The notes: a model not told the origin generated them from the sequence alone. Positions 23,907-62,297 are shown, counted from the first letter of the stretch. The stretch: DNA of 64,000 nucleotides from Patescibacteria group bacterium (GCA_041650895.1 JBAZKF010000001.1:637181-701180), one strand, 5' to 3'. Numbers and translations are program-made.

Positions 23907-23909
23907 TTT

Positions 23910-26804: not shown

Positions 26805-26817
26805 ACCACTGTTTATT

Positions 26818-26848: not shown

Positions 26849-26899
26849 TTCTCAAAAATAAGGTTTAATTTTATCCTTGGGTGTAATACAAAAAACACC

Positions 26900-30928: not shown

Positions 30929-33900
30929 CTATTTGGCGACACGGAAAACTTCTTCTACTGTTGTTTCTCCGGCCATGGCTTTTAAAATGCCATCCTGAAG
31001 CATTAAGACTGCGCCCTCCTTAACGGCCAGTTCTTCTATTTCTGAATTAGTAACCGCCGGTCCTTGCACCACTTTTTGCATTTCAGCGGTGTTTGGTATG
31101 ACCTCATAAATACCTAAGCGTCCTTTATAACCTAAACCGCCGCATTTTTCGCAACCAATCGCCTTAAAGTAAGTCGGGTTTTTTGGTATTTTGACTCCAG
31201 ATTTAGGATTAATACCCTTAATAATATTGGCCACTTCTTTGGCCGTCTCAGCATTAAGTTCATCCGGTTGCTTGCAATACTGACAAATCTTTCTGACTAG
31301 GCGCTGGCCGATAGTACATTCCAAGGAGTTAGCTAAAATATGCGGTTCAATGCCTAAACCCAAGAAACGGGGGAAAGCTCCGGCCGCGGAATTGGTATGG
31401 ATGGTGGATAAGACTAAATGACCCGTTAAGGCCGCTTCAATCGCTGTCTTGGCGGTTTCACTGTCACGGATTTCTCCGATCATCATGATATTAGGATTTT
31501 GACGTAATAAAGAGCGCATGGCTGCGGCGAAAGTGTAGCCTTGAGCTTCATCAATCTGTGTTTGCATTACGCCGGCCAAGTGGTATTCAATCGGGTCTTC
31601 TATGGTAATAATTTTAATATCCGGCTTATTGAGTTGGTTAAGTAAGGCGTATAAAGTAGTAGTCTTGCCTGAGCCGGTTGGTCCGGTAGTAACAATAATA
31701 CCCTTGGTCTTTTCCATTGATTCTTGTAAGGGCTTTAGAGCATACTCACGCATACCTAAATCTTCAATTTTTAGGCTGGCGGCTTGCGCCGATAAGATAC
31801 GGATGACAATTGTCTCACCGTAACCCCCGGAAATAATGGAAATGCGACAATCTTGTTTGACTTGTGGCGTGAAAATGCCGAAACGTCCATCCCAAGCCGC
31901 TTTTTTGATATTAGTCGGCATGCCGGCCAAAATTTTCATATTAGATAAGACCGGCAAATATTGGCCCTTATCCAAAGTAGCCATATCATACAGAATGCCA
32001 TCAATCCTGAAACGCACCTTAACGCCAGTATCAGTCGGCTCAATATGAATATCGCCGGCGTCCGCTTTAAGCGCCACCGCCATTAATAAAGCCGTCAGCT
32101 CTTTAGCTGGAAGATTTTCCAGTTCTCCTTGGATTTGTTTTAAATCTTTGGATAGTTCTTCGCCCTTAGTTAGCTCTTTGGCGGTCAGATTAATGCCACG
32201 GCCGATAGTTTGGGTAATGACTATGTCGTACAATTCTTCCACATAATCCAATTTACCAATAACGCGGAAAACCTCTTGTACGTCGGTAACGCCGTTCAGA
32301 GATTTAATAATGCCATCCTGCAACATTGTAATCATGCCGTTTTCAATCGCTTGTTTGAGAATTTCAAAGGCCGCTGCGCCATTCATAGTCAACTCTTTGA
32401 TGTTATCGGTCATGGTAAAAATTTCATAGATACCGATACGGCCCTTGTAGCCGATGCCGCCGCAAGCTTCGCAACCCGGTCCGGGTTCATACATCTGAGG
32501 TAAGTTTGCCGGTATGTCAATACCCGACTTAGGGGAAACGGTTGCTAATATTTTTTCTACCGTAATTTTTTCCTCTTCTGTAATTTGATGCGGTTGTTTG
32601 CATTTTTCGCATAATTTGCGTACCAAGCGTTGGCCGATAACCGCATTAATGGAGGGAACAATAAAGAAGGGTTTGATGCCCATATCCATTAAACGTGGGA
32701 TAACTCCAGCCGCGTCATTAGTATGGACGGTAGAAAGCACCAGGTGGCCTGTTAAGGCCGCTTGAGTAGCAATATCAGCTGTCTCATTATCGCGAATTTC
32801 ACCTACCATTACAATATCCGGATCTTGGCGTAAAATAGAGCGCAAGCCCTTGGCAAAGGTGTAGTCTTTTTTAGGATCAACTTGCGATTGATTAATGCCC
32901 TTGAGGCGGTATTCAATCGGGTCTTCCAGGGTGATGATTTTTACATCCGGATGATTAAGCTTATTAAGGACCGCGTATAAGGTCGTAGTCTTACCGGAAC
33001 CGGTCGGACCGGCAGTTAGAATTAAGCCGTTTGGTTTTTTTATTTCCGCTTCCAATGTTTTAAAGGCTGCCGGCAATAATCCTAATTGTTCAAAAGATAA
33101 GGCGATTGATTGGGAATGCAATAAACGCATGACTACGCTTTCGCCGAAATTAGTCGGCAGGAAAGACGTTCTGACATCTATTGCGTCATTTTCCAGGAAG
33201 ATGGTAAAACGGCCATCTTGAGGCTTGTCATCAATGTTGATTTTTGCTCGCGCTAAAATTTTAAGGCGGGCAATTATTTTTTTCCATTTATCTTTTTCAA
33301 TCATGGCCGAATCATGCAAGACACCGTCTACGCGCAAACGCACCACGATGCCTTTTTCTTCAGCTTCAATATGAACATCTGAAGCCTCAGCTTTGAGTCC
33401 AGTCGCCAGAATAATCGCCACTACATCAGTAATATTGACCTTATTGATCTTTTCATTTAAATCCTTAAAAGTCGTTATTTCTTTTTCAAAACGTTCAATA
33501 TCCTCTTTTTTTATTTCCACTCCACCCACTAAACGAGAGATTTTGGGTAAAGAATCATATAATTTGGCGGAACGTTCAAAACTATGCCGGGAGATAAGAT
33601 AAGGCAAAGCGTTGGCGTGAAACCTTTCCTGTAAAGCAGTTAATATTTTTTTGGCTTCATTATTATAATTTACACAGCCCACGCGCAGTTCCGAGCCGTT
33701 ATTGAAGAAACAGATTGTTTGAGTATCTTTGGCTGTTGACTCGTCAATAGAACTTAGGGCATCGGGAGAAATAGGGAAGCCAACCAGATTAATATAAGGC
33801 AAACCTAAAGCATCGGCGTTTTTGGCTACCTCGTCCTCTTTTTCTTTAATTTTTATTTGCGTTAATTTTTGTTGGAGCTGACCGCCTGTTGATTCTTTTT

Positions 33901-33958
33901 CGGCCGTCTCTCCTTCAGTTGTAAGATCCTCCAGTGATGGGCCTAAATTATCAGTCAT
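30929..33958 (-). CDS. pilB: tandem-duplicated (fused pseudo-dimer) type II/IV secretion ATPase PilB/GspE
   Basis: Two complete GspE/PilB units in one 1009-aa ORF. Each has an N2-like domain, Walker A (TAGPTGSGKTTTLYAVL and TTGPTGSGKTTTLYALL), Asp/His boxes and a tetracysteine zinc motif (CEKCKQ..CEACGG and CQYCKQ..CEKCGG). Confidence 0.85.
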   Translation of the reverse strand: MTDNLGPSLEDLTTEGETAEKESTGGQLQQKLTQIKIKEKEDEVAKNADALGLPYINLVGFPISPDALSSIDESTAKDTQTICFFNNGSELRVGCVNYNNEAKKILTALQERFHANALPYLISRHSFERSAKLYDSLPKISRLVGGVEIKKEDIERFEKEITTFKDLNEKINKVNITDVVAIILATGLKAEASDVHIEAEEKGIVVRLRVDGVLHDSAMIEKDKWKKIIARLKILARAKINIDDKPQDGRFTIFLENDAIDVRTSFLPTNFGESVVMRLLHSQSIALSFEQLGLLPAAFKTLEAEIKKPNGLILTAGPTGSGKTTTLYAVLNKLNHPDVKIITLEDPIEYRLKGINQSQVDPKKDYTFAKGLRSILRQDPDIVMVGEIRDNETADIATQAALTGHLVLSTVHTNDAAGVIPRLMDMGIKPFFIVPSINAVIGQRLVRKLCEKCKQPHQITEEEKITVEKILATVSPKSGIDIPANLPQMYEPGPGCEACGGIGYKGRIGIYEIFTMTDNIKELTMNGAAAFEILKQAIENGMITMLQDGIIKSLNGVTDVQEVFRVIGKLDYVEELYDIVITQTIGRGINLTAKELTKGEELSKDLKQIQGELENLPAKELTALLMAVALKADAGDIHIEPTDTGVKVRFRIDGILYDMATLDKGQYLPVLSNMKILAGMPTNIKKAAWDGRFGIFTPQVKQDCRISIISGGYGETIVIRILSAQAASLKIEDLGMREYALKPLQESMEKTKGIIVTTGPTGSGKTTTLYALLNQLNKPDIKIITIEDPIEYHLAGVMQTQIDEAQGYTFAAAMRSLLRQNPNIMMIGEIRDSETAKTAIEAALTGHLVLSTIHTNSAAGAFPRFLGLGIEPHILANSLECTIGQRLVRKICQYCKQPDELNAETAKEVANIIKGINPKSGVKIPKNPTYFKAIGCEKCGGLGYKGRLGIYEVIPNTAEMQKVVQGPAVTNSEIEELAVKEGAVLMLQDGILKAMAGETTVEEVFRVAK

Positions 33959-44938: not shown

Positions 44939-45177
44939 GACGGTTGCATTGAAGCCGGCTAAAACTTCTTTCAAATGAAAATCCAAAGATTTCTTATTTG
45001 AAATAGTTGGCGGAGGATGAAAGTGGCAAAATATAATTTTTTGTTTTGTAAGCTGGATTACTTGCTTTATTTGGTTAGAATTGGTTAACAGTAAACAAAA
45101 ACCGGCTATATTAAATAGCTGGTTTTTGTTTGGGATAACTTAAGTTTGAATAAAGCCTTATGAACGTTCTCTCATGT

Positions 45178-45247
45178 CGGGGTGCGGGGAATTGAACCCC
45201 GTCTACACCCACCCCATGGGCGCGTACTACCGACATACTCCACCCCG
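45178..45247 (-). tRNA. tRNA-Pro(GGG)
   Basis: Minus strand reads CGGGGTG GA GTAT GTCGGTA GTAC G CGCCC ATGGGGT GGGTG TAGA CGGGG TTCAATT CCCCG CACCCCG A. Confidence 0.7.
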
Positions 45248-45636
45248 ATTTTATTTTTGGTATTTAGATAAATCTCGCTTCACTCTCGTTCAGCTCGTCC
45301 AGGGTTAGCGAAAATATGCCACTGGCATATTTTCGATCGTTCAATTTCGCGCTCTCGCGCTTATTTCACTTCTAACCTTTTAAAATCCTGGGCGGATTTT
45401 AAACCACCCCATGGGCGCGTACTACCGACATACTCCACCCCGATTTTATTTTTGGTATTTAGATAAATCTCGCTTCACTCTCGTTCAGCTCGTCCAGGGT
45501 TAGCGAAAATATGCCACTGGCATATTTTCGATCGTTCAATTTCGCGCTCTCGCGCTTATTTCACTTCTAACCTTTTAAAATCCTGGGCGGATTTTAAACC
45601 ACCCCATGGGCGCGTACTACCGACATACTCCACCCC
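45209..45636. repeat. 195-bp tandem direct repeat x2.2 containing copies of the tRNA-Pro(GGG) 5' half plus upstream sequence; each unit carries a perfect 27-bp palindrome
   Basis: Unit 45209-45403 is identical to 45404-45598; a partial third copy runs to 45636. Each unit begins with CCACCCCATGGGCGCGTACTACCGACATACTCCACCCCGA (the reverse complement of tRNA positions 1-40) and contains CGAAAATATGCCACTGGCATATTTTCG. Confidence 0.85.
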
Positions 45637-45711
45637 GTTGCCTATCAGGATCTTTATCTTTACTTAAAAGCTTGATTTACTATTGCAGTTTACTGAATTT
45701 TTAATAAAAAG

Positions 45712-46557
45712 TCAAGAATCCGAGCGTTTATTTTTAGCATAGTCAATCAGGGTTTGTCTCAAAGCTTCTTTAATTGGTCTCATGGTGATACCTAAATCAG
45801 CCAAGTTTTTTGACTGCAGAATATTACTAGAACGTTTCTTTACCGCAAGTCCCAGGTCGACCAGGTCAGCTTCATTAATCCAGCTATTTTCATGTTGTGG
45901 ATCAATCAACTCTCGATATAAATCAAGAATCTCCTTGTGCCTGATACTTCCGGGGTTAGTGACATGAAAAATTCCTCCAGCCCTTTTTGTTAATAACTGA
46001 TAAAAAACTTTTATCATGTCTCCAATTATCGTTACGCTATTTTCCACGTCAACGACTTGTTTATAAGCAGTTAACTTATCAATTAAGTTGCCACGATAAG
46101 GTAAATTATCGATGGGCATCCTGATTCTGGCAATGCCGACGTTAGGCAGATTCATTAAGGCCAGGTCGGCTGCATATTTTGATTTTGTATAAACTACTTC
46201 CGGATTAGCGAAATCAGTTTCTTTCCAACCCTTTGGTTCGGGAGATTGGCCATAAAAAATACAGCCGCTGCCAATGTGCAGTAAATAAACATCTTTTTTT
46301 GCGCAGGCCGATGCAATCATAAGAGGCAATAGGGTATTGCCTTTGATTGTTTCCAATTGATTAGTCTCGCACCAGTCAACATTCGGCTTACCGACAATTC
46401 CCGCCGCGTTTAAAACTACATCCGGGCAAAACTCTTCTAAAATATCAGTAACATCTTCAATTGAATTGATGATTTTATCTGATAGGATAGCCTCGTTTCT
46501 CCATTCTTGGGCACAACGGCTGCCAATATAGCCACTGCCGATAATCAGGATTTTAAT
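45712..46557 (-). CDS. NAD(P)-dependent sugar-nucleotide reductase/epimerase (RmlD-like) lacking a canonical ATG start
   Basis: The Rossmann N-terminus (I)KILIIGSGYIG is encoded in-frame upstream of the first ATG, which lies at residue ~68. The expected ATG position reads ATT. The RmlD-like C-terminal substrate-binding region is present. Confidence 0.5.
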   Translation of the reverse strand: MKILIIGSGYIGSRCAQEWRNEAILSDKIINSIEDVTDILEEFCPDVVLNAAGIVGKPNVDWCETNQLETIKGNTLLPLMIASACAKKDVYLLHIGSGCIFYGQSPEPKGWKETDFANPEVVYTKSKYAADLALMNLPNVGIARIRMPIDNLPYRGNLIDKLTAYKQVVDVENSVTIIGDMIKVFYQLLTKRAGGIFHVTNPGSIRHKEILDLYRELIDPQHENSWINEADLVDLGLAVKKRSSNILQSKNLADLGITMRPIKEALRQTLIDYAKNKRSDS

Positions 46558-50777: not shown

Positions 50778-52400
50778 CTATTCCGCAGAAGTCGACGGAG
50801 CGGTCGTCGGCTCTACTCTTTCCGCTTGAGGCAGGCCCCCCATAACCGGCTTAAAGCTGACATTAGCTTCCAATTGATTCTTCCAAGCGCCAGAGTCGGC
50901 TGATTCCATCCAATAAACGCATTGGTTGGCTGCATCAGTCAATATCACATCAGGACGGTTGCCGGCGATATAGTGTTTAGGGTCATTACTGTCCAAGGTA
51001 ACGACAGTGGTCAGCCAATAGAAGCGGATCTTATCGTTTACCCTGGTGATATAGGGCCGTTGCTCGACCGGTCGATTGATTGTCCAGTCAAAGAATTTAT
51101 GATCGCCGATAACTTTATTGGTTACGGCGGTTACTCCCAGCATTGGTTCTTTCTGATGATGAGAAAAAATGAATATTTTACTCAAGCCGTCAGCCGGCAC
51201 GAACAAAGAGACGGATAATCCTTGCGATTTTTCCGAGTAAGGCTGAAGCGAGAAGTAGTGATAAAGAGCGTCTTTGCCGCCGAGTTGCCCCAGACGGAAA
51301 AAGATAGTGAAGGGCTGATCGTTCATATCCTCGGGCATATTGGCGATTCTGACATCGCCGTTATGTATCCAAGGTAGAGGAGCGGATAGTCCTTTATGGA
51401 ACTTGAAGCTTTCAGCAATGTAACGGGATACTTTATAAGACAAGACATTCTGTCCATCCAGGAATGGGTGGTTTTTCATTTTGGCCGGCGGCACATAATA
51501 GCCGCAACCGAACATGACTCGCCTGATGCTTTGCCAGACGTTGTCTGGCGATTGTTCAATTATCTGTACTCCGCCAAAAATCGGCCGTGGAAACAGTAAT
51601 CCTTTCCAACGGATCAGTGGTACTACTTGCACCATCTTTCCAGAATCGTCTTTAAGGTAGATAACTCCGTCCGGTTCATAATTGAAGTAACGCCATAACC
51701 CGAAAGCGCGGCTGACGGCGGTGTAAGTATTTCTGCTCCATTTAAGGTTTTCTCCAGTTTCGAATTTGACGTTAATTAGGTTTTGCAACCCCCAATCCGG
51801 AGCCGGAGATGTGCCATCAACATTATAAACTTGGCGAATTCCAGAGAAGATACGGGGTAAAAGAGGAGTAGGCTCAATGCCCATAGTAAAACGGTATTGA
51901 CTGCCGATCCGCACAAAATGCGGTTCAGCCGGTTGGACGTTGTCTTGCACTAATTCCCGCGCTTGCGAGAAAACAGAGTTAAGCGGTAAGATCCGCTCGT
52001 AAGCCGTTTCCGGTAATTGCTCCAATTCTACGAAATCATTGACTTTGTAGCAGTAATACTGCGCCAGATAGTGATGAATCGGCTTGCCGACCTCATAAAT
52101 ACCGAAGCCAATAAGCAGATAGAGTACTACTAACAGTAGTTTACCGCGCCATCGATATTTGCGGTACAGCCAACGGAAAATGCCTATGGCCGCAATAATC
52201 GCCAAGAAAGAACCAAAGAACTTTCTGACAGTAATGACGGATCCGTATACATACCCGCGAGCTATAAATAGCTCTAAGCCGGTTGCTATCAGGAGAATAG
52301 TAAAAATCAACCAGTGACGTTTAGCGAAATTCATTGACCAGACGGCGCTGTGTTTGAAAAGCCAGAAAAGCCGACCGTGTTTATCTTGTTTTTCACTCAT
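50778..52400 (-). CDS. hypothetical polytopic membrane protein with large extracytoplasmic domain (540 aa)
   Basis: SD AGGAGATAG. Four N-terminal TM helices, then a ~400-aa Trp/Tyr-rich domain. Unassigned. Confidence 0.55.
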   Translation of the reverse strand: MSEKQDKHGRLFWLFKHSAVWSMNFAKRHWLIFTILLIATGLELFIARGYVYGSVITVRKFFGSFLAIIAAIGIFRWLYRKYRWRGKLLLVVLYLLIGFGIYEVGKPIHHYLAQYYCYKVNDFVELEQLPETAYERILPLNSVFSQARELVQDNVQPAEPHFVRIGSQYRFTMGIEPTPLLPRIFSGIRQVYNVDGTSPAPDWGLQNLINVKFETGENLKWSRNTYTAVSRAFGLWRYFNYEPDGVIYLKDDSGKMVQVVPLIRWKGLLFPRPIFGGVQIIEQSPDNVWQSIRRVMFGCGYYVPPAKMKNHPFLDGQNVLSYKVSRYIAESFKFHKGLSAPLPWIHNGDVRIANMPEDMNDQPFTIFFRLGQLGGKDALYHYFSLQPYSEKSQGLSVSLFVPADGLSKIFIFSHHQKEPMLGVTAVTNKVIGDHKFFDWTINRPVEQRPYITRVNDKIRFYWLTTVVTLDSNDPKHYIAGNRPDVILTDAANQCVYWMESADSGAWKNQLEANVSFKPVMGGLPQAERVEPTTAPSTSAE

Positions 52401-52411
52401 GGTGCTATCTC

Positions 52412-53185
52412 CTATTCCCTTTCTTGGTCGGAGTTATTCACTACTCCTTCAGGGCTGCCAGGACTGCTTTCACCTCGGGCAAAAGCTTTTAGATTAGCTC
52501 TCGCCGCCCTTAAGCGTTCATCATTCAACGGAGTGGCTTTGGCCTTGTCGCCTACAAGATTAATGCTGGTTTGCACAGTTGCAAGTTCTTGTTGCAGGGC
52601 GGATAGCTCGGAAGTCGCCGTTGTTGCCGGCAGTTCTTCTGTTTCTGCAGGAGTCGCGGTAATAACCACTGGTTGTTCCGGCTGATTAGCCGTTCTAACT
52701 GCGTCTTTAAGGGCGCTTCGCCAATTGGCTAAACCGCCGGTTAAGTTATTCCACCAGTTTCTGGCTTTCTTTTTGGCTTCATTGCCGACTTGGATTTCTC
52801 CGGTTTCAATCCTGTCGATTACGTCTAGATGCTTCAGTAATCTTTCACGCTTGCCCAAGAGTCGCATAACCATGGGACCGCAATAGAAGCCGACCATCGT
52901 AAAAACGACAGCCATTAACAACAAGAAGGAATTGACTGCGGGGCCATGCACCATCATATAGAGGCATAATCGCCAATTAATGAAACCCAGAAGCAAGGCC
53001 GAGTAAAAGCGTCCTCGCGCTTTACGACCTAAGATGAAACCGGAGACTTGATCGGCCGGTAGGCGCTTACTGTGGGTCAGATTGTAAACGAAAGAGAATA
53101 CAACTACCCCAAAGTATTTATCAAGACCGAACCAGACGATACCGAGAGCAGTGAACAACAGGGCATACGACAAAAAAATTAGCAT
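52412..53185 (-). CDS. hypothetical membrane protein (3-4 TM) with cytoplasmic Ala/Thr/Glu-rich coiled tail
   Basis: SD AAGGAGA. 11-nt gap to the downstream gene. Confidence 0.5.
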   Translation of the reverse strand: MLIFLSYALLFTALGIVWFGLDKYFGVVVFSFVYNLTHSKRLPADQVSGFILGRKARGRFYSALLLGFINWRLCLYMMVHGPAVNSFLLLMAVVFTMVGFYCGPMVMRLLGKRERLLKHLDVIDRIETGEIQVGNEAKKKARNWWNNLTGGLANWRSALKDAVRTANQPEQPVVITATPAETEELPATTATSELSALQQELATVQTSINLVGDKAKATPLNDERLRAARANLKAFARGESSPGSPEGVVNNSDQERE

Positions 53186-53243
53186 GGTGATTCTCCTTGG
53201 TTCGCGGTTGGCAACCGCATTAGTTGAAAGTTATTCCTTTACG

Positions 53244-54536
53244 TTAATCAGTTAGTTCTTCCTTAGACGCTCTTTCTCTTAAGATGTTCATTTTTGGTCG
53301 GTAATGTTTCTTGAGCGTGGCGATGGCCCAGAGCTGTTTTGCTTTAGGCCAACCGTCATAGCGCTTATAGAACAGATTCTTATCGCAGATAAAAGTGATA
53401 AGCAGCCGCCAGGGCTGTAGTCGCGCAATCAGCATGCCGACCAATTCCCATATTTCTTCTTCCAGGTCCGGACGGGGTTGCAAGAGCAAAAGTTTAAGTT
53501 CATCTGACAATTCATCAAAACTTTCAACTTCGTTTTGTTCTAAGCGTTTGATCAGCCGTTCCAGATCTTTGTAGATTTTGGGAATTTTGGTGCCAAGGCT
53601 TCTCAGACGCGCCTTTTTTTGCGGTTCCGTCAAATGAAGATAATCAATTTCGGGATCGGCGGCGGAAAGGATATCAATCAGCAGGCAATCGCGTTTTTCT
53701 TCTAGGATTTCGGGGTGCTCCCGATACCAGGAAAGATTAACAGTGATCAGTCCGGCTTCTTCCAATCGATCGATTAAATGCTTGTTGGTCAATGGGAAAA
53801 TGTCAATTTGTGTTGCTCGATTTTTTTTGGCCAGCTTGCCATCCTCAACAACCATGAAGTCTCCCCCCGGCAGATTACGGAAGACAAAAACGCCGTTAAG
53901 CGCCCGACTGTAAAAACAGCCTAATTTTTCGTAGCGCCAGTCCGGTATTTCTACCGTACGGTATCGCAAGTTGCCATACTTTTGAGCGCTAGCGATAAGC
54001 TGGCGGGTTAATTCCCTGTTAGCCCAGTTATTGCCGGGGGCAAGAAATTCTTCCGTCAGTTTTCTTTGATGTTGAGCCGCTTGAATCAAGTCATCGCAAT
54101 AACTTATAACCGTGATATCTTCTACTAAAAGCAGATCCAGGATTGTTTCATAAGATGTCAGTTCCTGATCAATATCCAGGGCTATGCCGGAAGTCGTAGT
54201 GATATCCGCAATAACCTGGCGGAACTTTTTGAAGAACTCCGCCATCAGCGAACGATCAAACGAACTGAAGGGAAAGTAAATCGGTTTATGCTCTTGATCG
54301 GGGGAAAGAATTATTGCTAGTTGATTAGCCACGCCATGTGACAGATACAGCGGATTGCCGGTTTCTTGGGCGATTTCCGGCGACCAACCGATGCCATCAA
54401 TGGAAAATGAGGTTAGTTGAGTCGGGGGAAGTCCCAATCGTTTAAGGCAATCGTTATATCTTTCAATAAGTTGCGGCGTGTCCACCAGAGTCAATCCTTG
54501 GCCGAATAATCCGGCATCAGCAAGTAATTTATCCAT
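53244..54536 (-). CDS. hypothetical soluble protein (430 aa) with N-terminal FGQGL motif
   Basis: SD AAAGGAATAAA. Its N-terminus MDKLLADAGLFGQGLTLVDTPQL shares a motif with the N-terminus of the 56557-57789 protein. Confidence 0.55.
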   Translation of the reverse strand: MDKLLADAGLFGQGLTLVDTPQLIERYNDCLKRLGLPPTQLTSFSIDGIGWSPEIAQETGNPLYLSHGVANQLAIILSPDQEHKPIYFPFSSFDRSLMAEFFKKFRQVIADITTTSGIALDIDQELTSYETILDLLLVEDITVISYCDDLIQAAQHQRKLTEEFLAPGNNWANRELTRQLIASAQKYGNLRYRTVEIPDWRYEKLGCFYSRALNGVFVFRNLPGGDFMVVEDGKLAKKNRATQIDIFPLTNKHLIDRLEEAGLITVNLSWYREHPEILEEKRDCLLIDILSAADPEIDYLHLTEPQKKARLRSLGTKIPKIYKDLERLIKRLEQNEVESFDELSDELKLLLLQPRPDLEEEIWELVGMLIARLQPWRLLITFICDKNLFYKRYDGWPKAKQLWAIATLKKHYRPKMNILRERASKEELTD

Positions 54537-54617
54537 TTTATTCCTTTCAGTTCAACCCCGCCAATATTTTGGAGGGGGTTAGGTTTTTTACCATAACCCC
54601 CTCCGTTAGGAGAGGTC

Positions 54618-56567
54618 TTACTTGTGCGATTCCAGCCAGTTTTGGACTGCCTGGTTGGCTTCCAGTTGAATCATCATTTGTTCGCTTGCCCGTTCCACTT
54701 CGCGACGATGACCCAAGTCAACAATTGCTACCATATTGTCCAGGTAGCGCATCGCCTCTTGGAACCTGATTTCTGCGAACGATTTGCCTCGCATATTCTG
54801 TTGCATTAATCCTAATACCATAATCTTTTGTTGGTCGTAGGGTTGACGGAAAAATATTTCCGGATCGGACATCCATTCTTCAGGTAAGTCAAAGTCTAAT
54901 AGCCGATCATCAACGGCCCGTTGAATATTGCGGGTGTCGCGCGAACTGAATTTGGGGAATTGTCTTTGGACTTCTTGATAGAGCTTAGCAAAAAACTTTT
55001 GTTCATTAATATCATGTTCTTTGTTCACTCGGTTGAAAATATCCAAAATAGTCCGTTCCCTGGGTTGCTGATAGCCGACGTAGGTCTCGGCCATACTGCC
55101 GATTAAACGTTGGGCAAATAAGTATTTGTAATCGTCAGGATCGGTCATGGCGATGAAAGCAGGATCGATTTCGGCGATGCGCTTCCACCATAGGTGGTCC
55201 TGATCCAGGAAATCTTGCCACGTTGTGGCTCCTTCAATTTTGAAGCGGGTCACGATACGCGACAGTAGAGCCGAATCCAGTTGGTCGGGAATATTAGTCA
55301 GAAAGAACACTACGGAGTTGCCTCGCCAAATAGCCGAAGCTCCTTCCAAATTGGTCAGAGCCGCACCGATAACCTCACGGACACCGGCAGATACGCCTTG
55401 GCGAGTCCTGTCTTCATAATTAACTTCAGCATCATCGGCCGGTCCGAAAGAAATCCTGTCAGGATTTAAGATACGTTGCCACCATTCCTCGGCCCGTTCT
55501 CTGGATCCGCCTTGGTAGGTAGAAACGATATTGGGGGGATGAGGATCAAATACATAAGGTAATTCCAACCACTGACAGAGATCATAAAGCATGGTGGAAA
55601 AGGCGCCAATCATCATGGTTTTACCCGTACCGGGAATGCCAAACCCTATGCTGGCGGTCGGCATACCTCCTAAATCAAACATGACGTTGCGTCTTTCCGC
55701 TACTTTATAACAAGCTGTGCGTACTGCCAATCGTTGAAAAAAGCGTTTGGCATCGCGATTGCCGACAATAGTGTTGATATCAACCCGCTTGAACTCCACG
55801 CTAATCGCGTTGTTTAGTCCGTTTTCAAAACCGGAAATGGTAAAATCTTCCCCTGCCAACTTGTAAGTTATATCGGTAAAGAATTGAGTGTATTCCAACG
55901 AGTCGCGACGCAGTTTGATTTCATCCAGTGCTCCTTTAGCCGCCACTTGGACGGCTTTGAGCAGATCCAAATCATTCCTGACTTTTCCTGATTCCTGGAC
56001 GAATTTTCCCATATAGACTAGCAGGCAGTTAAAACCGCGCAGATAGTCGGTCAGACAGATTTCCGGATAGCCCGGAAAGTCCATGGATAGGGAATCCAAC
56101 TTTTCACCCTTGTAACGCGACAATGACCAAAAGACGAAAGAGGCGAAGCTGAACTGGGCGACGGCCGCAGCCGTTGCCAGTTTTTTGGAAAACTCCGCTT
56201 TTTGCCCTTCATTCAGTCGTTGGCGCGAATTGTCATCAAGCAGTTTAGCCAATCCCGAACTTTTAGCATACATCTCCACCACGTAACAGCCAATGCCGAT
56301 TCCCGTGTATAAGGAGTTAAGCAGTTGGTTGACGTTGCCTGAATTAATTGTTCTGTTGGGATTGTATGGTTTAACGAGCTCCAGCCAATTGATTCTTTCC
56401 TCCATCGGCGCTGATTCGCTAAACTTTAATCCGCCAGCGGTCGAAGGAGGTGTTAGCGGCTTCTTTGGCAGCCAACCGGCGTTTTTTATTAATTTGTCGG
56501 CAAAAGCATCAAAAGATCTGAGTTGCTCTGCCGTAATCGGCACGCAGGATCCGTTTTTATCTCCCAT
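54618..56567 (-). CDS. classic-clade AAA+ ATPase with ~280-aa N-terminal domain and C-terminal extension
   Basis: SD GGAGGAC. Walker A GFGIPGTGKT. Sensor-1 FFLTN. Arg-finger region SALLSRI. A hydrophobic segment AAAVAQFSFASFVFWSL lies upstream of the ATPase core. Confidence 0.75.
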   Translation of the reverse strand: MGDKNGSCVPITAEQLRSFDAFADKLIKNAGWLPKKPLTPPSTAGGLKFSESAPMEERINWLELVKPYNPNRTINSGNVNQLLNSLYTGIGIGCYVVEMYAKSSGLAKLLDDNSRQRLNEGQKAEFSKKLATAAAVAQFSFASFVFWSLSRYKGEKLDSLSMDFPGYPEICLTDYLRGFNCLLVYMGKFVQESGKVRNDLDLLKAVQVAAKGALDEIKLRRDSLEYTQFFTDITYKLAGEDFTISGFENGLNNAISVEFKRVDINTIVGNRDAKRFFQRLAVRTACYKVAERRNVMFDLGGMPTASIGFGIPGTGKTMMIGAFSTMLYDLCQWLELPYVFDPHPPNIVSTYQGGSRERAEEWWQRILNPDRISFGPADDAEVNYEDRTRQGVSAGVREVIGAALTNLEGASAIWRGNSVVFFLTNIPDQLDSALLSRIVTRFKIEGATTWQDFLDQDHLWWKRIAEIDPAFIAMTDPDDYKYLFAQRLIGSMAETYVGYQQPRERTILDIFNRVNKEHDINEQKFFAKLYQEVQRQFPKFSSRDTRNIQRAVDDRLLDFDLPEEWMSDPEIFFRQPYDQQKIMVLGLMQQNMRGKSFAEIRFQEAMRYLDNMVAIVDLGHRREVERASEQMMIQLEANQAVQNWLESHK

Positions 56568-57789
56568 TAATCAAGTCCTCCCCGTTAAAGGTTATGTATT
56601 TGAAGCTGGCAAATCCCAACTCGGAGAGTTGGTGATCATTGACGGCTTGTTGCAATAAACAATGAGGCAGAATGCAATAATGTCTGACTGCGGAAACGTG
56701 CCGTTGCTGGCATTCCATGGAGAGTTCGTTGATCTTAAAAACTTCTCGGACTTTGCGCCGCAAGGGCCGGCCATAGACTTCTTGCCGTTCGGAAATAACT
56801 TCTTCTTCAGTCAGCAATAAGACAAAGTCGTCTTCTTTCCGGCTGAATTCCGTCATAATCCGACACCAAGCTTCTTGCCATTTGTCAGTGTTTGCTGACA
56901 GGTTATCGCAAAGGAACTTGGAATATAACGGCCCTAAACCGATACGCCTGATAATTTTAGGATGGATATTAACCAAACGATCATCAATATCCAAAGCCAG
57001 GATTCCGAGCTGGGGAGCCCGCGAGCCGACATTGGTAATGATGTGCAAGAATTCTTTCCAGGTTTGCCCGTACTCTTCCAATGGTTCGCAATCATTGTCA
57101 TGTTCAAAATTCATCAGATATAAGTAGGGGCGGTTAGTGGTAAAATCAAAACAAGCCCAAGCGAAACTGTAACATCGCGCCTTAGGATTGTCTGATTTTA
57201 ACGCTGTCAATTCTCCAGCCGTAAACGGCAGGAATAATTTGTCCTCCGCTAACATGGAAAAATAAGATCTTTCGCCTAAAATCGCCAGAATATCTTCTGC
57301 TTCAGTCAGTTGATTGAACATGTATTCCAGCGCTGTCCTTTTCAGACGGTCCGATCCGGGCAAACTAGCCAGTCGTTCATCGCGTTGCAGATAGTCAATC
57401 CTTAGATTATCAAGCTCAATAAAATTAGGAAAGCCGGACTCGGTCAAGTCCACTCGCAGGCGATGCTGGTTGTTGTGGATATATTTCATTCTTAGGCATT
57501 CCATGGTGTAAGAAAAACGTTTTAGAAAATCAATAATGATGCCGGTTTGATTATCGGCGTTGTTGCCGATTTTATGACACCAGGATAGCAGAATTTTTAT
57601 TACCCGGAGCTGCTGAGCGAAATACTTGACGTATTTGTCAGTATCTTCCAGTAAGGCAAAATCCATACTGCCTCCATCAGTAAAATCTCCGCCGACTAAG
57701 CTATTGAGCTCGTCAGCAGATCGTCTTAAATCAGCGGGGGTAATATTAACCGTACTTAATCCTTGGCCGAAAAATGATAGTCCTCCCAT
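56557..57789 (-). CDS. hypothetical protein (410 aa) with N-terminal FGQGL motif
   Basis: Start set at MGGLSFFGQGLSTVNITPADL, 7 nt after SD AAAGGAG. Overlaps the AAA+ gene by 11 nt. Confidence 0.5.
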   Translation of the reverse strand: MGGLSFFGQGLSTVNITPADLRRSADELNSLVGGDFTDGGSMDFALLEDTDKYVKYFAQQLRVIKILLSWCHKIGNNADNQTGIIIDFLKRFSYTMECLRMKYIHNNQHRLRVDLTESGFPNFIELDNLRIDYLQRDERLASLPGSDRLKRTALEYMFNQLTEAEDILAILGERSYFSMLAEDKLFLPFTAGELTALKSDNPKARCYSFAWACFDFTTNRPYLYLMNFEHDNDCEPLEEYGQTWKEFLHIITNVGSRAPQLGILALDIDDRLVNIHPKIIRRIGLGPLYSKFLCDNLSANTDKWQEAWCRIMTEFSRKEDDFVLLLTEEEVISERQEVYGRPLRRKVREVFKINELSMECQQRHVSAVRHYCILPHCLLQQAVNDHQLSELGFASFKYITFNGEDLINGR

Positions 57790-57880
57790 AACAACTCCTT
57801 TCATGGCCGTTAGCCATACTGAAAGAAAAAGGAGGAGATCCAAGATTAAGGATCTCCTCCGTTGCGTGTAGTTGTGTGTA

Positions 57881-59206
57881 TTATTTACCCTCATCTCCTC
57901 CGAAGAATGATTCTTTTCTCAGATCAAAACCGTAGTTTTTTTGAAACAGTTCAATTTGTTCCTCTACGTCATTTCTGAATTGTCGATCCTGTTGATTGGA
58001 AGCCGCCATAATTTCGTGGTAGAGTTTGAGCCACTCCGGTATTTCTTGAAGCGCTTTAACCAACGCTTTTTGGGCCGCGGCTCGGATTTCCGCCATACTG
58101 GCCATACTTCTGGCGTCAACTCCCCGGCCGGCTTTGTTCAATTCTTCGGCCGTCGCCAAATCTTGATGGGATTTAGTGGCTTCCAACCAGGAACGCACCG
58201 TTGTCTGGCGGTATTCCACCTGTTTGGTGATCATGGCTTGCCAGGTGAGATTGATGGTCAGAAGGTCATTAAGTGTTTGGACATGAAGGTCCAATTGATG
58301 CGCAAAGTTTTGCGCTTCCTGGGCGATTGCCATACAAATATTATATTTGCCTTGCAAGGCATTCAGTGATTGCTTCAAATCGGAAGTTTTCTGGTCTTGC
58401 TTGGCAAAGCCTTTGTCTGTCCTATCCATTGTTACCAATGTCTGTTCGGCCTCGGCCAACTCACCTTTGAGCGCGACAATCTGTTGGTCAAGTCTTTCGC
58501 AAGCTTCGTTTGCTTGCGTGTGGGTTTCAAACGCCGCCCGTTTCTGCGCCTTGTCTTGTTCCAGTTGCATTTTCTGTGACTGAGCGCGAGCTTGCATGGC
58601 TTTCAAAAGCCGACCGCAAGCCAATTTGTAAGCCGTCAGACTATCTTCAATGGTTGCGTTGCTGAGGCGATCGCGCATTGCCTTATTGATACGTTCTTTG
58701 GTCGCCGCTTCCAATTGTTGGGCCGACGCTAAGTCAGTCTGGGCGTTGCGGATGGCGCTTTGGCGGAACAAACGTTTGGCCTTGGCCTTGGCTAAGGCAA
58801 GTTCAGCCTCTTTAATTCTGTTTCCGGCTTGTACCAGGGACGCCTGTTCTTGTGGCGTCATTTCTTTGAGTTGGATTACCTCGGCTCCCAATCCTTCCAG
58901 TATGATATTGAGACTTGCCATCATGCCGGCCAAGTCCGTTTTTTCTTTGGCCAAACTGGCGCGAACTTGCTCCCAGTCGGCCTTCTTTAAGCGACTCTTG
59001 ATGTCTATACTAAGAGTCGGACCTTGGCTTTTGGTGGCTGTTTCCAGACCTTGTCGCATATCGCCAAGTATGGCGTTGATATCAAAGCCCAAATTTATTG
59101 ATGCCGGTTCTTGCTCCAACTTTTGGCTGGCGGTATCCAAATTTTGTAGCATACTATCCAAGAAATTAGATCCGTCAACTCCACCGCCCGTTTGTTCTGT
59201 CGTCAT
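57881..59206 (-). CDS. long coiled-coil protein (Gln/Ala/Lys/Glu-rich heptads), first gene of the operon
   Basis: SD AAGGAG. Predicted extended coiled coils across most of its 441 aa. No catalytic motif. Confidence 0.55.
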   Translation of the reverse strand: MTTEQTGGGVDGSNFLDSMLQNLDTASQKLEQEPASINLGFDINAILGDMRQGLETATKSQGPTLSIDIKSRLKKADWEQVRASLAKEKTDLAGMMASLNIILEGLGAEVIQLKEMTPQEQASLVQAGNRIKEAELALAKAKAKRLFRQSAIRNAQTDLASAQQLEAATKERINKAMRDRLSNATIEDSLTAYKLACGRLLKAMQARAQSQKMQLEQDKAQKRAAFETHTQANEACERLDQQIVALKGELAEAEQTLVTMDRTDKGFAKQDQKTSDLKQSLNALQGKYNICMAIAQEAQNFAHQLDLHVQTLNDLLTINLTWQAMITKQVEYRQTTVRSWLEATKSHQDLATAEELNKAGRGVDARSMASMAEIRAAAQKALVKALQEIPEWLKLYHEIMAASNQQDRQFRNDVEEQIELFQKNYGFDLRKESFFGGDEGK

Positions 59207-59544
59207 GATTACAGCTCCTTGTTGTCGCCGGCCCGCTAAGCGGCGCGACTTTTGGTTGTTTCTAACAGTTTAATCGCCAATAATACTTGAGTGTATCTTG
59301 GTGTTACCTAATTTACTTTTTCCTCCTTATTTTTAAAGCTATTAAGTTGTCAAAGTCCGCACCCTTACGCCAAATTCTTTGGCATAAAGCGATTGATTAC
59401 CTTAGCAAAAAAAATAATATTTGTCAACTAATTTGTCATAATAATAGAAACAGTCTCGGATTAAAGTAGTCATTTAGGCATTTTTTGTTTAAATTTAGAT
59501 AATTTTTGTGGTTATTCTCTAACTTTTTAGTAATTTTTTGGCAT

Positions 59545-59575
59545 AAAAAAGCCGACCAGGCAAGCTGGTCGGCGT
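59545..59575 (-). terminator. rho-independent terminator (minus strand) separating the membrane-protein triplet from the AAA+ operon
   Basis: Minus strand reads CCTTACGCCGACCAGCTTGCCTGGTCGGCTTTTTT. Confidence 0.7.
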
Positions 59576-59589
59576 AAGGTGCTGATTGT

Positions 59590-60462
59590 TTATGAGCCGA
59601 AGCCGTTGGCGTCGGGCCCTTTTGGTTTGCTCCGTCCCGCCTTCCGCGTCATCCTCGTTTTCTTCGGGCCGTCTTTCGATTCCCCTTCCGGCTTATCAAC
59701 GGGTTGCTCTGGGGGTTGCTCCGGGGCGGGATCGGCGGTAGCAGCAGCGCCGTTGGCGGTAGCAACAGCCTGGCCGGCCGGAATGTTTTTTACCGTATCA
59801 GTTCGCTCGTAAGCGGTTTGATCTTCCGGACAGCTTTGTAACTGATCCCTTATTTCGTCATAATCCCTCTGTAATTCGTTAATCATCGTTTGCAGCTTCT
59901 CATTGTCTTCCCGTTGCTTTTTTAGAGTCAACTGGTACTCGCGATACTTGCGATAGGAGAATAAGGAAACGAAGTAAGCAACGATGATCGGCAATATCAG
60001 CCACCACGAGAAAAGTAACAGAATAAGCAATAAGCTGGCCATCCCTAGGGCCAGACCGGCAACCATACCGTGGATTATTGCGCCCATTAAACAGACAAAA
60101 ATTGCGCCTAACAGACTACTGATAACACCGTAGCCAAGCTCCATTTCAATAGACTTAATAACGGCTTTAGCATTCTCTTCTCTGTACTCTTGGTATGTCG
60201 GGATAGGGAACCCCTTAATCTTTTTGGTGATGTTTTTTTCCCATAGGTAACTCCATAGATAATCATGCGCATGGAGACATTCCATCCACCACTGGGGCGG
60301 TAACCAGAGAACTTTGAAACTCCACCAGTGGTCGTGTCGTTGTTTGATGCTATTAACCAGGACTATGACCGGTATGGTCGACCAAGTAAAGAGCGTTAAT
60401 GAGCCTATCAATATTCCGATGTAGAGAGAGTGCCAAAGGCAAAGAGTGAGCAGAGTGTTCAT
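59590..60462 (-). CDS. membrane protein, paralog 3 of a tandem triplet (4 TM, WLPPxWW motif, basic Pro/Ala-rich tail)
   Basis: Shares VLVNSIKQRH...WLPPQWW and the helix layout with the two upstream genes. Confidence 0.6.
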   Translation of the reverse strand: MNTLLTLCLWHSLYIGILIGSLTLFTWSTIPVIVLVNSIKQRHDHWWSFKVLWLPPQWWMECLHAHDYLWSYLWEKNITKKIKGFPIPTYQEYREENAKAVIKSIEMELGYGVISSLLGAIFVCLMGAIIHGMVAGLALGMASLLLILLLFSWWLILPIIVAYFVSLFSYRKYREYQLTLKKQREDNEKLQTMINELQRDYDEIRDQLQSCPEDQTAYERTDTVKNIPAGQAVATANGAAATADPAPEQPPEQPVDKPEGESKDGPKKTRMTRKAGRSKPKGPDANGFGS

Positions 60463-61253
60463 TGTTCGTCCTTTCCTGTTGGGGGCGGTGTTTCTTTTTT
60501 CTTTTTCGTTGTTGGCTGTTTTCTGGTGTGCGTTGGTTTGTTCTTTGGCTTATTATCTAGCGTCTTTTTGGGGGTATCCGCTCGTTTCTGTCTCGGTGGT
60601 CCTATATTCTTCGCACAAACATTGGTAACAGCGGTAGTTTGATCAGTCGTATTAGCCTCTGTTTCTTCTAATCGTTTGCGCAAATCATTAACGCAGTCAC
60701 ACATTCTTTCGCTCATAGCTATCAGCTGGTTCATAGTTGTCAGATTCTCGTCATATCTTTTTTTCTTTTCTTGGATTGATTGACATTTGTGATGAAAAAA
60801 TCGGTAAATGAGATAGGTAATAATGATCGGAAAAGTCAGCCACCATAGATAGCCCAGTAACAGACTGGCCGTCACCAAAGCCAGACTGACGGCCGTGCCG
60901 CAGGTTACTGCTATTATCAGACAAGAGAGAAGTACGGCGAAAAATCCGTCAATGACCTCGTCTTTCGTTACCTCATTGATAGCTCTAATTATCTCCTTAG
61001 GTCTTGCGTTAGCGTACGTTTGGTAGGTTCTGATATCACCAATTATCCAAGGGAAACAGTCTATTATGTAGTCGATGGCATAAAAGCAGGCCATCCACCA
61101 CCATGGAGGTAACCAGTCAACCTCGAAAGGTCGTCGGCGGTTATGACGTTGTTTGATACCATTGACCAAGACTATGGTTGGGAGAACCGAATAAGCAAAA
61201 AACGTCAATGCGGCTACTAACGTGCCGATGTAAAAGATAGTTAACGCGTTCAT
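60459..61253 (-). CDS. membrane protein, paralog 2 of the tandem triplet
   Basis: VLVNGIKQRH...WLPPWWW. The C-terminus KKKKETPPPTGKDEQ is identical to paralog 1, and ~50 nt of the 3' DNA is identical. Confidence 0.6.
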   Translation of the reverse strand: MNALTIFYIGTLVAALTFFAYSVLPTIVLVNGIKQRHNRRRPFEVDWLPPWWWMACFYAIDYIIDCFPWIIGDIRTYQTYANARPKEIIRAINEVTKDEVIDGFFAVLLSCLIIAVTCGTAVSLALVTASLLLGYLWWLTFPIIITYLIYRFFHHKCQSIQEKKKRYDENLTTMNQLIAMSERMCDCVNDLRKRLEETEANTTDQTTAVTNVCAKNIGPPRQKRADTPKKTLDNKPKNKPTHTRKQPTTKKKKETPPPTGKDEQ

Positions 61254-61978
61254 TGTTCGTCCTTTCCTGTTGGGGGCGGTGTTTCTTTTTTCTTTTTCGT
61301 CTTCGCTCTCGGCCTTCCGGCGCGCGTCGGCTTTTTTGGGTTTGGGGAGGCGTTGGTTGTTGCAATTGACGTTGCTATAGCGAACAGCGCTGATTTCAAT
61401 TCTATAATCTCCTCGTCAATAACCTTTTGCCTAAGCTGATAGCTTTTGATAGCGCGCCAAATAATGTAAGCAACTCCGCCGATCAGCCATAACCACCAAG
61501 TGTATTTGAGTAGTAAGCCGATTATCGAAACAATCATAAGCAGTAATGTGCCGAATGAAAACAAGAGAAGCCAGGTGCCAGCCGCGACCATTGCCGGGAG
61601 TAATACTCCTAATACAAACGTAATAAAAATCATTGCACTAAGTGAGATATCCAGAGGGTGCTCATTAAGCAGTCTCTTTTTACCGCATTCTACCCAGCCG
61701 TCCAGCGTCTCATTGAAATTATCTTTGACTCCCGAGGTGAAAAGAATAATGTAGTAATAAATAAAAGCATGATAAGCGATTAGCCAATCGGGTGGTAGCC
61801 AAACAGCTTTATAATCTTTCCGACGGAATCGGCATTTGGCGCCGTTTACGATAATAACCAGTAAATGGATGAAAAAGGCTGAAAAAATGGCAAAAAATGC
61901 CAGTTCGGTGCCAAGCCGTACCAGATGATCAAAGTATAACGAAAAAGTCCAACTAATTGCTAAAAGTAACATTTCCAT
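61250..61978 (-). CDS. membrane protein, paralog 1 of the tandem triplet
   Basis: Start at MEMLLL after SD AAGGAGAAC. WLPPDW motif. Same C-terminal KKKKETPPPTGKDEQ. Confidence 0.55.
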   Translation of the reverse strand: MEMLLLAISWTFSLYFDHLVRLGTELAFFAIFSAFFIHLLVIIVNGAKCRFRRKDYKAVWLPPDWLIAYHAFIYYYIILFTSGVKDNFNETLDGWVECGKKRLLNEHPLDISLSAMIFITFVLGVLLPAMVAAGTWLLLFSFGTLLLMIVSIIGLLLKYTWWLWLIGGVAYIIWRAIKSYQLRQKVIDEEIIELKSALFAIATSIATTNASPNPKKPTRAGRPRAKTKKKKETPPPTGKDEQ

Positions 61979-62297
61979 GATGTTCTCCTTGCCTTTTATG
62001 GCTGTTTTGGTTTGCGCAGTAATGTTTTTAAGTTTTGAATGTGCCGATCTTCGTACCACAATATCATATAAGCGGTGAAAAGTCAATGGTTAGTGGAGAA
62101 GTTGGGGAAAAGTCAGCAGTTTCATTATATAAGTCAGAAAATAAAGGAATTGGGAGACAGAAGCTATTTTTTGATTGATCTGTTTGGTTTTTGTCGACAA
62201 AGTTATAAAACTTGTTTAAATTTAGGCAAATTATTCATTAATTTTGTCTTGCCGCGTGCTTATTTATCCGTATATTTTCTATTTTTTTATTTATCTC

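Follow-up and report, generated by a model that had tools for sequence, protein, structure and literature searches.

tRNA genes are classic landing sites of large mobile elements that carry an integrase. Prophages, genomic islands and integrative and conjugative elements of tyrosine integrases are bracketed there by direct repeats of part of the tRNA, and the intact tRNA is rebuilt. Miniature inverted-repeat transposable elements (MITEs) and repetitive extragenic palindromic (REP) or bacterial interspersed mosaic element (BIME)-like repeats, including those derived from IS200/IS605, are small, non-coding, hairpin-forming and multi-copy. Here, we describe an array beside a tRNA-Pro(GGG) gene that resembles both kinds of element. 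The array lies in a stretch of 64,000 nt from a Patescibacteria group bacterium, which we call the window, and all coordinates count from its first letter. We interpret it tentatively, with confidence a little short of even, as two tandem copies of a 156-nt non-coding, non-autonomous miniature insertion element that targets tRNA genes. The finding points to a tiny passenger without genes at tRNA sites, which leaves the tRNA intact and has a 23-nt core common to at least five phyla.

Integrative elements offer precedents for parts of this arrangement. Both the use of the 5′-distal part of a tRNA gene, which is rare, and arrays at one attachment (att) site are known for them (PMC6563490). The same paper cites Zhao & Williams 2002 for a rare class of integrative elements that replace the 5′ part of the tRNA.

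Two identical 156-nt units lie upstream of tRNA-Pro(GGG)

The array is read from the minus strand, on which ARAGORN calls a complete 72-nt tRNA-Pro(GGG) gene without an encoded CCA (45176-45247); we inspected its cloverleaf by eye. Positions 1-39 of the tRNA, termed here repeat A, occur in three exact copies on this strand: inside the complete gene (45209-45247), at 45404-45442 without the 3′ half, and at 45599-45637. Repeat A runs from the tRNA 5′ end to 2 bases beyond the anticodon loop, and the identity of the third copy ends precisely at tRNA position 1 (45637). Between the copies lie two 156-nt units of the same sequence, termed B′ (45248-45403 and 45443-45598, minus strand), which were detected by Tandem Repeats Finder (TRF) and by a repeat search. 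At 45209-45637, TRF reported a period of 195 bp, 2.2 copies, 100% matches and 0 indels. The repeat search recovered the exact 195-nt pair (45209-45403 and 45404-45598) and the three exact 39-nt copies, with 0 expected in shuffles in both cases.

With the gene on the minus strand, the partial tRNA copies lie upstream (5′) of tRNA-Pro and not 3′ of it; read in the sense of the tRNA, the array runs A, B′, A, B′, complete tRNA. The original prediction, made from the sequence alone, had described tRNA-Pro(GGG) with 2.2 exact units of 195 bp, and ARAGORN, TRF and the repeat search bear this out. It had also placed the repeats after the tRNA, which the strand of the gene contradicts, and had assigned 40 nt of tRNA (positions 1-40) to each copy; the partial tRNA copy is there, with its length corrected to 39 nt, positions 1-39. 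Its view that this is not a CRISPR (clustered regularly interspaced short palindromic repeats) array holds: the spacers between the repeats are two identical 156-nt units and not unique sequences, and a CRISPR array was rejected on this ground. As a separate observation, an Rfam cmscan over 45174-45247 gave only a 15.7-bit transfer-messenger RNA (tmRNA) hit and no tRNA family, where ARAGORN calls the gene and the cloverleaf is regular.

The layout is head-to-tail, as in a tandem repeat or minisatellite, with 195 bp x 2.2 here and 215 bp x 2.1 in the relative L127. It also has a feature of integrative elements, in that direct repeats of the partial tRNA bracket the insert, with one copy within the intact tRNA; an internal integrase gene is absent from the 156-nt units.

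L127 belongs to a related Patescibacteria lineage, located through its RmlD-like protein (90% identity), in which the order of RmlD-like gene, array, tRNA-Pro(GGG) and DUF5060 gene is the same. The tRNA-Pro(GGG) sequence is identical in L127 and in L128, another assembly of that lineage. The array of L127 consists of two 215-bp units with one single-nucleotide polymorphism (SNP) between them (TRF: 2.1 copies, 99%), and an extra, older A fragment, truncated and degraded, lies beyond the third A. All partial A copies of the relative carry one 20-nt GC-hairpin insertion that its functional tRNA lacks. The units of L127 are non-identical, so the array is biological and not an assembler loop; judged from these sequences, it is older than the split of the two lineages. 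The units of each lineage share their own substitutions, which argues for concerted evolution.

Sequence comparisons indicate a hairpin selected on one strand

On the tRNA-sense strand, the element consists of hairpin 1, a central 75-nt hairpin domain, the conserved CTGGACGAGCTGA and an AT-rich tail that abuts tRNA position 1. Hairpin 1 (TTTAAAATCC-5 nt-GGATTTTAAA) directly follows the half-tRNA (45379-45403 in copy 1 and 45574-45598 in copy 2, minus strand, found by the repeat search). We had considered hairpin 1 (TCCGCCC) as an antisense to the tRNA 5′ end and rejected this, as its loop is not conserved in L127. The central domain (45303-45377 and 45498-45572, minus strand) was delimited by folding and by comparison with L127 and two further loci, L126 and L085, described below. 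It has a closing stem GGTTAG/CTAACC, a 5′ side branch that includes a GCGC-GAGA-GCGC hairpin (45349-45360), and CG-palindrome-CG at its tip. Its 75 nt fold at -28 kcal/mol (z = -5.6). The 27-bp palindrome at the tip, CGAAAATATGCCACTGGCATATTTTCG (45309-45335 and 45504-45530, minus strand), has perfect 13-bp arms around one central base; it had been noticed in the original prediction, and the repeat search found it in both units with 0 expected by chance. It contains the family core AAAATATGCCA-G-TGGCATATTTT, with G as the central base on the tRNA-sense strand. The tail (45248-45289 and 45443-45484, minus strand) was delimited by reading the sequence and is a candidate tRNA promoter, with CTAAAT at -20 to -15; a promoter scan of the window did not call it. 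The promoter module listed among the readings of the original prediction may apply to this tail.

Several further features were looked for in the array. Rfam 15 covariance models gave no match over it even at E<=1, the 156-nt units have no open reading frame (ORF) exceeding the unit length, and inspection by eye revealed no hammerhead-type core motifs. The two ends of the unit (TTTAAAATCC... and ...AAAATAAAAT) do not form an inverted repeat, and the repeat search showed internal hairpins only.

The pair that flanks the 23-mer core is the clearest sign of a strand preference. Among 113 distinct contexts it is Watson-Crick in 38, G.T in 74 and something else in 1, and it is never A.C. The presence of G.T and absence of A.C imply a constraint on one strand, the tRNA-sense strand, on which the flanking T may also lengthen the U-run. 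The core itself varies in both arms together (AAAACAGTCCAGTGGACTGTTTT, AAAACATGCC.GTGGCATGTTTT, GAAATATGCCAGTGGCATATTTC), and in L127 the outer G-C of the palindrome has become A-T. When four Patescibacteria-type domains were aligned, 94% of the cells paired and 4 pairs changed on both sides. The covariation score of this alignment was reached by 2 of 500 shuffles and is an undercount, because the closing stem of L085 is one column off register.

Between the window and L127, the central hairpin and the following 13 nt are identical at 85 of 88 positions (97%), and two of the three changes form a compensatory pair. The same comparison gives 85.5% at RmlD third codon positions and 70% for the DUF5060 gene, and the spacer between tRNA and DUF5060 gene is unalignable. 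The loop of hairpin 1 and the tail are less conserved than the central part (83-86%). A caveat for the strand call in this lineage is a GTGG to GTGA change in L127, which yields a C.A mismatch on the tRNA-sense strand. Taken together, the compensatory changes, the strand-specific G.T excess and the 97% central conservation indicate a single-stranded hairpin under selection, as far as sequence comparison can tell. The folded strand may be RNA or DNA, between which the sequence does not discriminate; motifs of single-stranded DNA and of RNA are indistinguishable from sequence alone (PMC5737381).

The original prediction had read the palindrome as a binding site for a dimeric protein. The hairpin is strand-specific and compensatory, and no neighbor gene is conserved with it, both of which speak against that reading. 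A TrmB operator was likewise rejected, as the palindrome is present in phyla and loci without a shared regulator.

The hairpin recurs beside tRNA genes in other bacteria

A search with the CG-extended palindrome gave one metagenome match, L126, in which the element lies upstream of tRNA-Gln(UUG). In order, the locus comprises two partial 5′-end copies of the tRNA (an 18-nt GC hairpin splits one of them), a short hairpin, the central module, an AT-rich tail and the complete tRNA. The L126 module reads GGGTTAG, side branch, GAT-CG-palindrome-CG, CTAAGCC-AGGAC; that of the window reads GGTTAG, branch, GAT-CG-palindrome-CG, CTAACC-CTGGAC, and then come the tail and the tRNA. A third version, in a Patescibacteria metagenome-assembled genome (L085), reads GGGTGC, branch, CG-palindrome-CG, GCACCC-AGGAC. 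It lies downstream of tRNA-Ser and is enclosed by a 13-bp helix of antisense and sense tRNA segments. The 3′ placement in L085 and the 5′ placement in the window and L126 imply a single element type with two arrangements. The 3′ type has the complete tRNA upstream and a partial 3′ copy downstream; the 5′ type of the window and L126 is its mirror image, with partial 5′ copies upstream and the complete tRNA downstream. The palindrome or unit, which the original prediction had suggested seeking beside other tRNAs in relatives, is thus found at tRNA-Gln, at tRNA-Ser and at many more.

The duplicated tRNA part is fixed neither in position nor in length. In integrase-borne elements the 3′ part is usually the duplicated one. 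This holds for ~20 other members of the family, and in the window and L126 it is the 5′ part. The duplication comprises 39 nt in the window, ~11-19 nt in L126 and 15-97 nt in the 3′ type. As an aside, partial tRNA copies with an 18-20 nt GC-rich hairpin insertion occur at L127:6900-7390, L128:2790-3070 and L126:2331-2365, the functional tRNAs being free of it. The insertion is GCCTGCCTGCCGGTAGGCAG in the tRNA-Pro relatives and CCTGCCTGCGCAGGCAGG at the tRNA-Gln locus, and it may represent another tiny hairpin that is mobile in Patescibacteria, or reflect selection that disables half-tRNAs.

We then scanned 596 Gb, with one genome per species, for exact matches to the core AAAATATGCCANTGGCATATTTT. 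At least 120 stretches matched, and the core is in more than 120 genome contigs, against ~0.1 expected for 22 fixed bases; among viral contigs there were only 2 hits. Carriers belong to Clostridia, Actinomycetota, Patescibacteria (including Saccharibacteria) and Bdellovibrionota, together with a chromosome of Hyphomicrobiales, an alphaproteobacterium. Our counts of family loci refer to 122 loci among the matches listed, oriented so that the central base is G. A co-oriented tRNA gene lies 12-110 nt upstream of the core in 25 of these, and the window has the same orientation. Oscillospiraceae and other Clostridia account for most of the exact-core matches listed, as intergenic repeats present in many copies and built as X-GTTAAG-core-TAG-X′; some Oscillospiraceae have dozens of family copies per genome. 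CAKTMW01 and JAFTPN01 are examples of genomes with dozens of copies, and the cultivable Clostridiales bacterium NK3B98 has two.

The 3′ type, found in ~20 loci, follows a common plan: a complete tRNA, often its terminator, an antisense segment that pairs with the tRNA T-arm or acceptor 3′ strand, the hairpin, 60-80 nt of GA-rich and stem-rich sequence, and the direct repeat. The insert measures 130-200 nt. The repeat, of 15-97 nt, comprises the last ~20 nt of the tRNA, starting in the T-loop, and sometimes extends through the downstream terminator. An exact antisense match of 8-17 nt to the last 30 nt of the element's own tRNA is present in 19 of 21 inserts (shuffle mean 5.7). The antisense segment follows the local T-arm: a T-loop TTCAAGT goes with ACTTGAA, and a T-loop TTCGAGT with ACTCGAA. 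A 62-nt constant domain recurs within one Actinomycetota contig, after both tRNA-Arg(TCG) and tRNA-Leu(TAG), each time with its own repeat and antisense match.

In L085 the CCA is not gene-encoded and the repeat likewise lacks it, so the repeat was copied from DNA and not from mature tRNA. A retro-copy of mature tRNA was therefore rejected, and no reverse transcriptase was found. Eukaryotic tRNA-derived short interspersed nuclear elements (SINEs) share with this family a tRNA-derived head, an unrelated body and a non-autonomous nature. Unlike SINEs, the family has a repeat without a non-encoded CCA (L085) and copies at the parent tRNA gene, and it has no link to a reverse transcriptase.

Tandem units recur in the family, in L054 and L117. 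The L054 array (L054:2499-2863, 155 bp x 2.4, exact) stands at a contig end and is possibly an assembly loop. Among the Clostridia, two subfamilies deserve mention in their own right. In Oscillospiraceae repeats (L062, L063, L089, L091, L047, L115, L111), GGAGAGGTGGCCGAGCG, the first 17 nt of a tRNA-Ser, stands ~50 nt before the palindrome and behind its own complement CCTCTCCC, with no tRNA gene nearby; one or more ~62-nt sub-repeats (TAGTGTCGATCTC-GGCGGCTATGCCGCC-GTAGCATCC...) follow. A second subfamily stands after eight different tRNAs (L103:3890-4040, L099, L048, L025, L109, L098, L106, L119). It has a common multi-stem fold of ~190 nt with clear stem covariation and conserved single-stranded GGTGCG, GGTAC and AAGCAG, and it matches no Rfam family.

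Searches of collections and literature returned little that could name the family. An Rfam scan of 16 family loci gave only tRNAs and unrelated leaders, and BLAST of the 156-nt unit and of an Oscillospiraceae-type element against phage and plasmid collections gave chance hits or none. The palindrome, as DNA or RNA, had no sequence match in the searchable literature, and keyword searches of the literature returned nothing on bacterial tRNA-linked hairpin elements. The family of hairpins next to tRNA genes in at least five phyla thus appears undescribed, or perhaps it has been described under another name.

A tentative model of a tRNA-targeting insertion element

Our model suggests that the element entered the tRNA-Pro gene through recombination at or near the anticodon arm. 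It would have supplied its own copy of tRNA positions 1-39 together with the promoter-like tail upstream of it. The intact tRNA gene would thereby have been rebuilt and the original 5′ half pushed upstream, in the rare "5′-replacing" orientation. Unequal recombination at the 39-nt repeats, or else a further integration, may have produced the second unit, with concerted evolution presumably keeping the units alike. We hypothesize that the hairpin domain works in single-stranded, folded form, the tRNA-sense strand being the one that folds, and that an enzyme encoded elsewhere uses it in trans as its cis site. Of the whole element, only the 23-nt core is identical across phyla. In place, the hairpin would probably also block upstream read-through ahead of the tRNA promoter.

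A number of results weigh against this model. No recombinase, transposase or reverse-transcriptase domain was found among the 40 window proteins scanned. Nor did a shared neighbor protein emerge from clustering of 829 neighbor ORFs, from an integrase profile search, from the repeat-adjacent ORFs or from comparison of L126, L085 and L075 with the window. Most of the exact-core copies listed, the Clostridia repeats, have no tRNA nearby, and in L121, L080 and L040 the hairpin follows a tRNA without any repeat. Unlike at a lambda-type att site, no inverted core site lies next to the repeat, and we know of no enzymology for the direct-inverted-direct arrangement of tRNA segments in the 3′ type. The antisense segment of the 3′ type has a marginal counterpart in the window, where the side branch of the central domain has an 8-nt antisense match, AATTGAAC, to the tRNA T-loop (p ~0.03-0.05). 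No empty tRNA-Pro(GGG) site was found, the more distant RmlD homologues (P0004, P0008, P0018, P0019) not being syntenic, so mobility is inferred from distribution. Finally, the only close relative that we found also has the array, as would be expected of a resident functional RNA too.

A bolder version of the model, which we consider unlikely, is a protein-less, cross-phylum element that homes to tRNA genes by base-pairing. Its antisense "guide" would pair with the T-arm, and the displaced tRNA part would be rebuilt. It may move as a folded single-stranded or circular intermediate of ~150-200 nt, by means of a host or helper enzyme that recognizes the hairpin, and the window's units would be head-to-tail integrated monomers. 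If the element is mobile, its antisense segment, matched to the tRNA, suggests that targets are recognized by base-pairing, a point of interest for programmable DNA insertion.

The favored model of a miniature insertion element can be set beside several described systems. Like MITEs and REP-type repeats, the element has no linked protein gene, and any mobility would need an enzyme in trans. Its hairpin is strand-specific, as for HUH-type enzymes; no HUH (TnpA/RAYT) gene was found in the 64-kb window. Unlike MITEs, it has no terminal inverted repeats and no target duplication of fixed length, its target repeats being long, variable and tRNA-derived. REPs are species-specific, whereas the core of this family is conserved across phyla. 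IS200/IS605-derived and REP elements have similar subterminal hairpins at both ends, and the window unit has one conserved hairpin.

Folded single-strand sites, namely integron attC and the CTX attP hairpin that mimics dif, offer another parallel: in them, too, structure is conserved over sequence in the lower stem and one strand is preferred. As in CTX attP1/attP2, the antisense and sense tRNA segments of the 3′ type can pair and so rebuild a double-stranded copy of the target site. Unlike these sites, the family has no link to IntI or Xer, its apical 23 nt are conserved in sequence and the element is tiny. It also lacks the paired R-box of attC (GTTRRRY/RYYYAAC); the GTTAAG of the Clostridia type is unpaired, and the motif is absent from the window.

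Alternative explanations

The strongest rival, unlikely in our estimate yet deserving serious attention, is that the unit encodes a structured non-coding RNA, which would be transcribed together with the tRNA or next to it, perhaps as a chimeric RNA from the tRNA 5′ half to the palindrome hairpin. The tRNA-derived and antisense segments would then act on the cognate tRNA or on processing enzymes, and the partial copies would be functional rather than scars. Much of the evidence above suits such an RNA: the hairpin is selected on the tRNA-sense strand, with G.T but never A.C flanking the core; covariation in the stems extends to G-C to G.U changes; purifying selection acts on the central domain, and the relative has kept the array; and the antisense segment matches the local tRNA T-arm. 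In addition, the tail precedes a tRNA 5′ end in each unit, so a promoter in the tail would drive the upstream half-tRNA units too. In favor of duplication instead, the repeated tRNA segment varies from 10 to 97 nt and includes downstream terminators, and the same domain at different tRNAs with matching repeats needs a copying process anyway. The partial copies in relatives tolerate insertions of 18-20 nt, no Rfam family matches, no promoter or terminator was called, and the signature of selection serves single-stranded DNA as well as RNA. If the array is a resident RNA after all, it represents an unclassified structured RNA family tied to tRNA genes.

Classical att remnants, that is, scars of large integrase-borne islands or prophages in tRNA-Pro that were later deleted, are an improbable source of the array. 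The original prediction had listed nested att remnants among its readings, and part of this stands: the partial tRNA copies behave like att sites, direct repeats bracketing the inserts, and L127 retains its older degraded fragment. Arrays at one att site are known, as cited above. The tyrosine-integrase elements further resemble this family in the fixed start of the repeat within the tRNA (the T-loop in the 3′ type) and its variable outer end, and in tandem arrays from re-use of the same site; the 5′-replacing orientation needs a promoter supplied by the element. What does not stand is the spacer as a decaying remnant of a large element, given the 97% identity of the central 88 nt and the presence of the same compact element in other phyla and beside other tRNAs. 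Compact and structured, the 156-nt spacer is conserved beyond the level of synonymous sites, and random deletions would not repeatedly leave 130-200 nt. Unlike tyrosine-integrase elements, the inserts are only of that size and have no integrase and no gene; they share one near-invariant hairpin across phyla, contain an internal antisense copy of the T-arm and have no inverted core site by the repeat.

Recombinase genes near the family are few. An integrase-like ORF is nearby in only 3 of the 122 listed loci, which leaves 119 without an integrase: L017 has a tyrosine integrase, L103 a broken one and L020 a serine recombinase, the other neighbors being housekeeping genes. In L103 and L017 the tyrosine integrase gene is right behind the repeat, as att remnants would predict. 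For the window, the original prediction that no integrase is visible agrees with the domain scan of its 40 proteins.

About equally improbable is a local tandem duplication, or minisatellite, of the tRNA leader or promoter and 5′ half by slippage, with the palindrome as an ordinary terminator or operator. Its attraction lies in the exact period, the 2.2 copies at 100% identity, the lone hairpins after a tRNA without repeat in L121 and L040, and the likeness of the hairpin to a terminator. Like intrinsic bidirectional terminators, it has an A-tract, a GC-containing stem, a small loop and a T-tract, and often stands just after tRNA genes; a T directly behind the stem lengthens the U-run of the tRNA-sense strand, giving a fifth T in 74 of 113 family contexts. 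Unlike terminators, it is conserved in sequence between phyla, and many members already have a separate terminator between tRNA and hairpin. Measured against an intrinsic terminator (>=5 U within 8 nt), the window copy is an ambiguous case: it has four T's (TTTTCG), and a terminator scan does not call the palindrome. A terminator for co-directional upstream protein genes was rejected, as there is no orientation bias (34 + versus 45 -). Moreover, a simple duplication of A and B would give A-B-A-B and not the terminal third A, and the homologous elements at tRNA-Gln (L126) and tRNA-Ser (L085), with a core identical across phyla, do not follow from local slippage.

We give the lowest probability to an artefact in which the assembler passed twice through a loop of the de Bruijn graph and so created the second copy. 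In its favor, the two units match at 100%, MEGAHIT and Logan contigs from the same strain end within the array, L128 has one unit where L127 has two, and the L054 array is at a contig end. Against it, L003 independently holds 1.65 units and the SNP in L127 marks its two units as distinct copies.

We judged the duplication from assemblies and not from raw reads, locating assemblies of the same strain through identical flanking proteins. A 455-kb MEGAHIT contig of the window's strain (L001) ends inside the array at 45321, a 242-kb contig of the same assembly (L003) begins at 45316, and a Logan contig of the strain stops at 45228. Every assembly demands at least a half-tRNA, the element and the tRNA. 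Such arrays break short-read assemblies of small-genome bacteria, and they can be mistaken for att scars or CRISPR-like repeats. A minor observation is that the two MEGAHIT k141 contigs (the end of L001 and the start of L003) break 1-6 nt from the center of the first palindrome (45316-45322) and not at repeat boundaries. This could reflect a C/G mix at the center, through inversion between the palindromes, or poor sequencing of the hairpin.

Genomic neighborhood

Upstream of the array lies the RmlD-like (sugar nucleotide-binding) gene (45712-46557, minus strand), delimited by homologue comparison. The original prediction had taken the loss of its ATG as a sign of local decay. The start codon (46555-46557) is indeed ATT, as opposed to ATG (MKIL...) in five relatives, and 4 extra bases lie upstream. 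Decay is not apparent, the frame of 281 codons being intact and 90% identical to the relative. Between the DUF5060 gene and the tRNA 3′ end, outside the element, the repeat search found a bidirectional terminator-like hairpin (45093-45131, no strand assigned; 17-nt arms, 94% complementary).

The window encodes DnaA, DnaN, GyrA, YidC, a class A penicillin-binding protein, TsaD, TrmD and RuvC, and the homologues of the RmlD-like protein come from Patescibacteria; the window is the origin region of a small-genome bacterium of the candidate phyla radiation. A low-GC stretch at 18000-27000 (23-31% against ~40%) surrounds dnaA (19163-20629) and dnaN (20960-22099), and the cumulative GC-skew has its minimum at ~22-23 kb. 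With the likely replication origin in this stretch, tRNA-Pro(GGG) is oriented head-on to replication.

Two further observations concern genes away from the array. On the minus strand, nine co-directional genes at 50778-62086 are mostly without Pfam matches and include DUF6638 (53244-54536) and an AAA ATPase (54618-56567); this run may be a defense or mobile island. At 30929-33958, a single ORF encodes a protein of 1009 aa with a fusion of two T2SSE (type II/IV secretion ATPase) regions.

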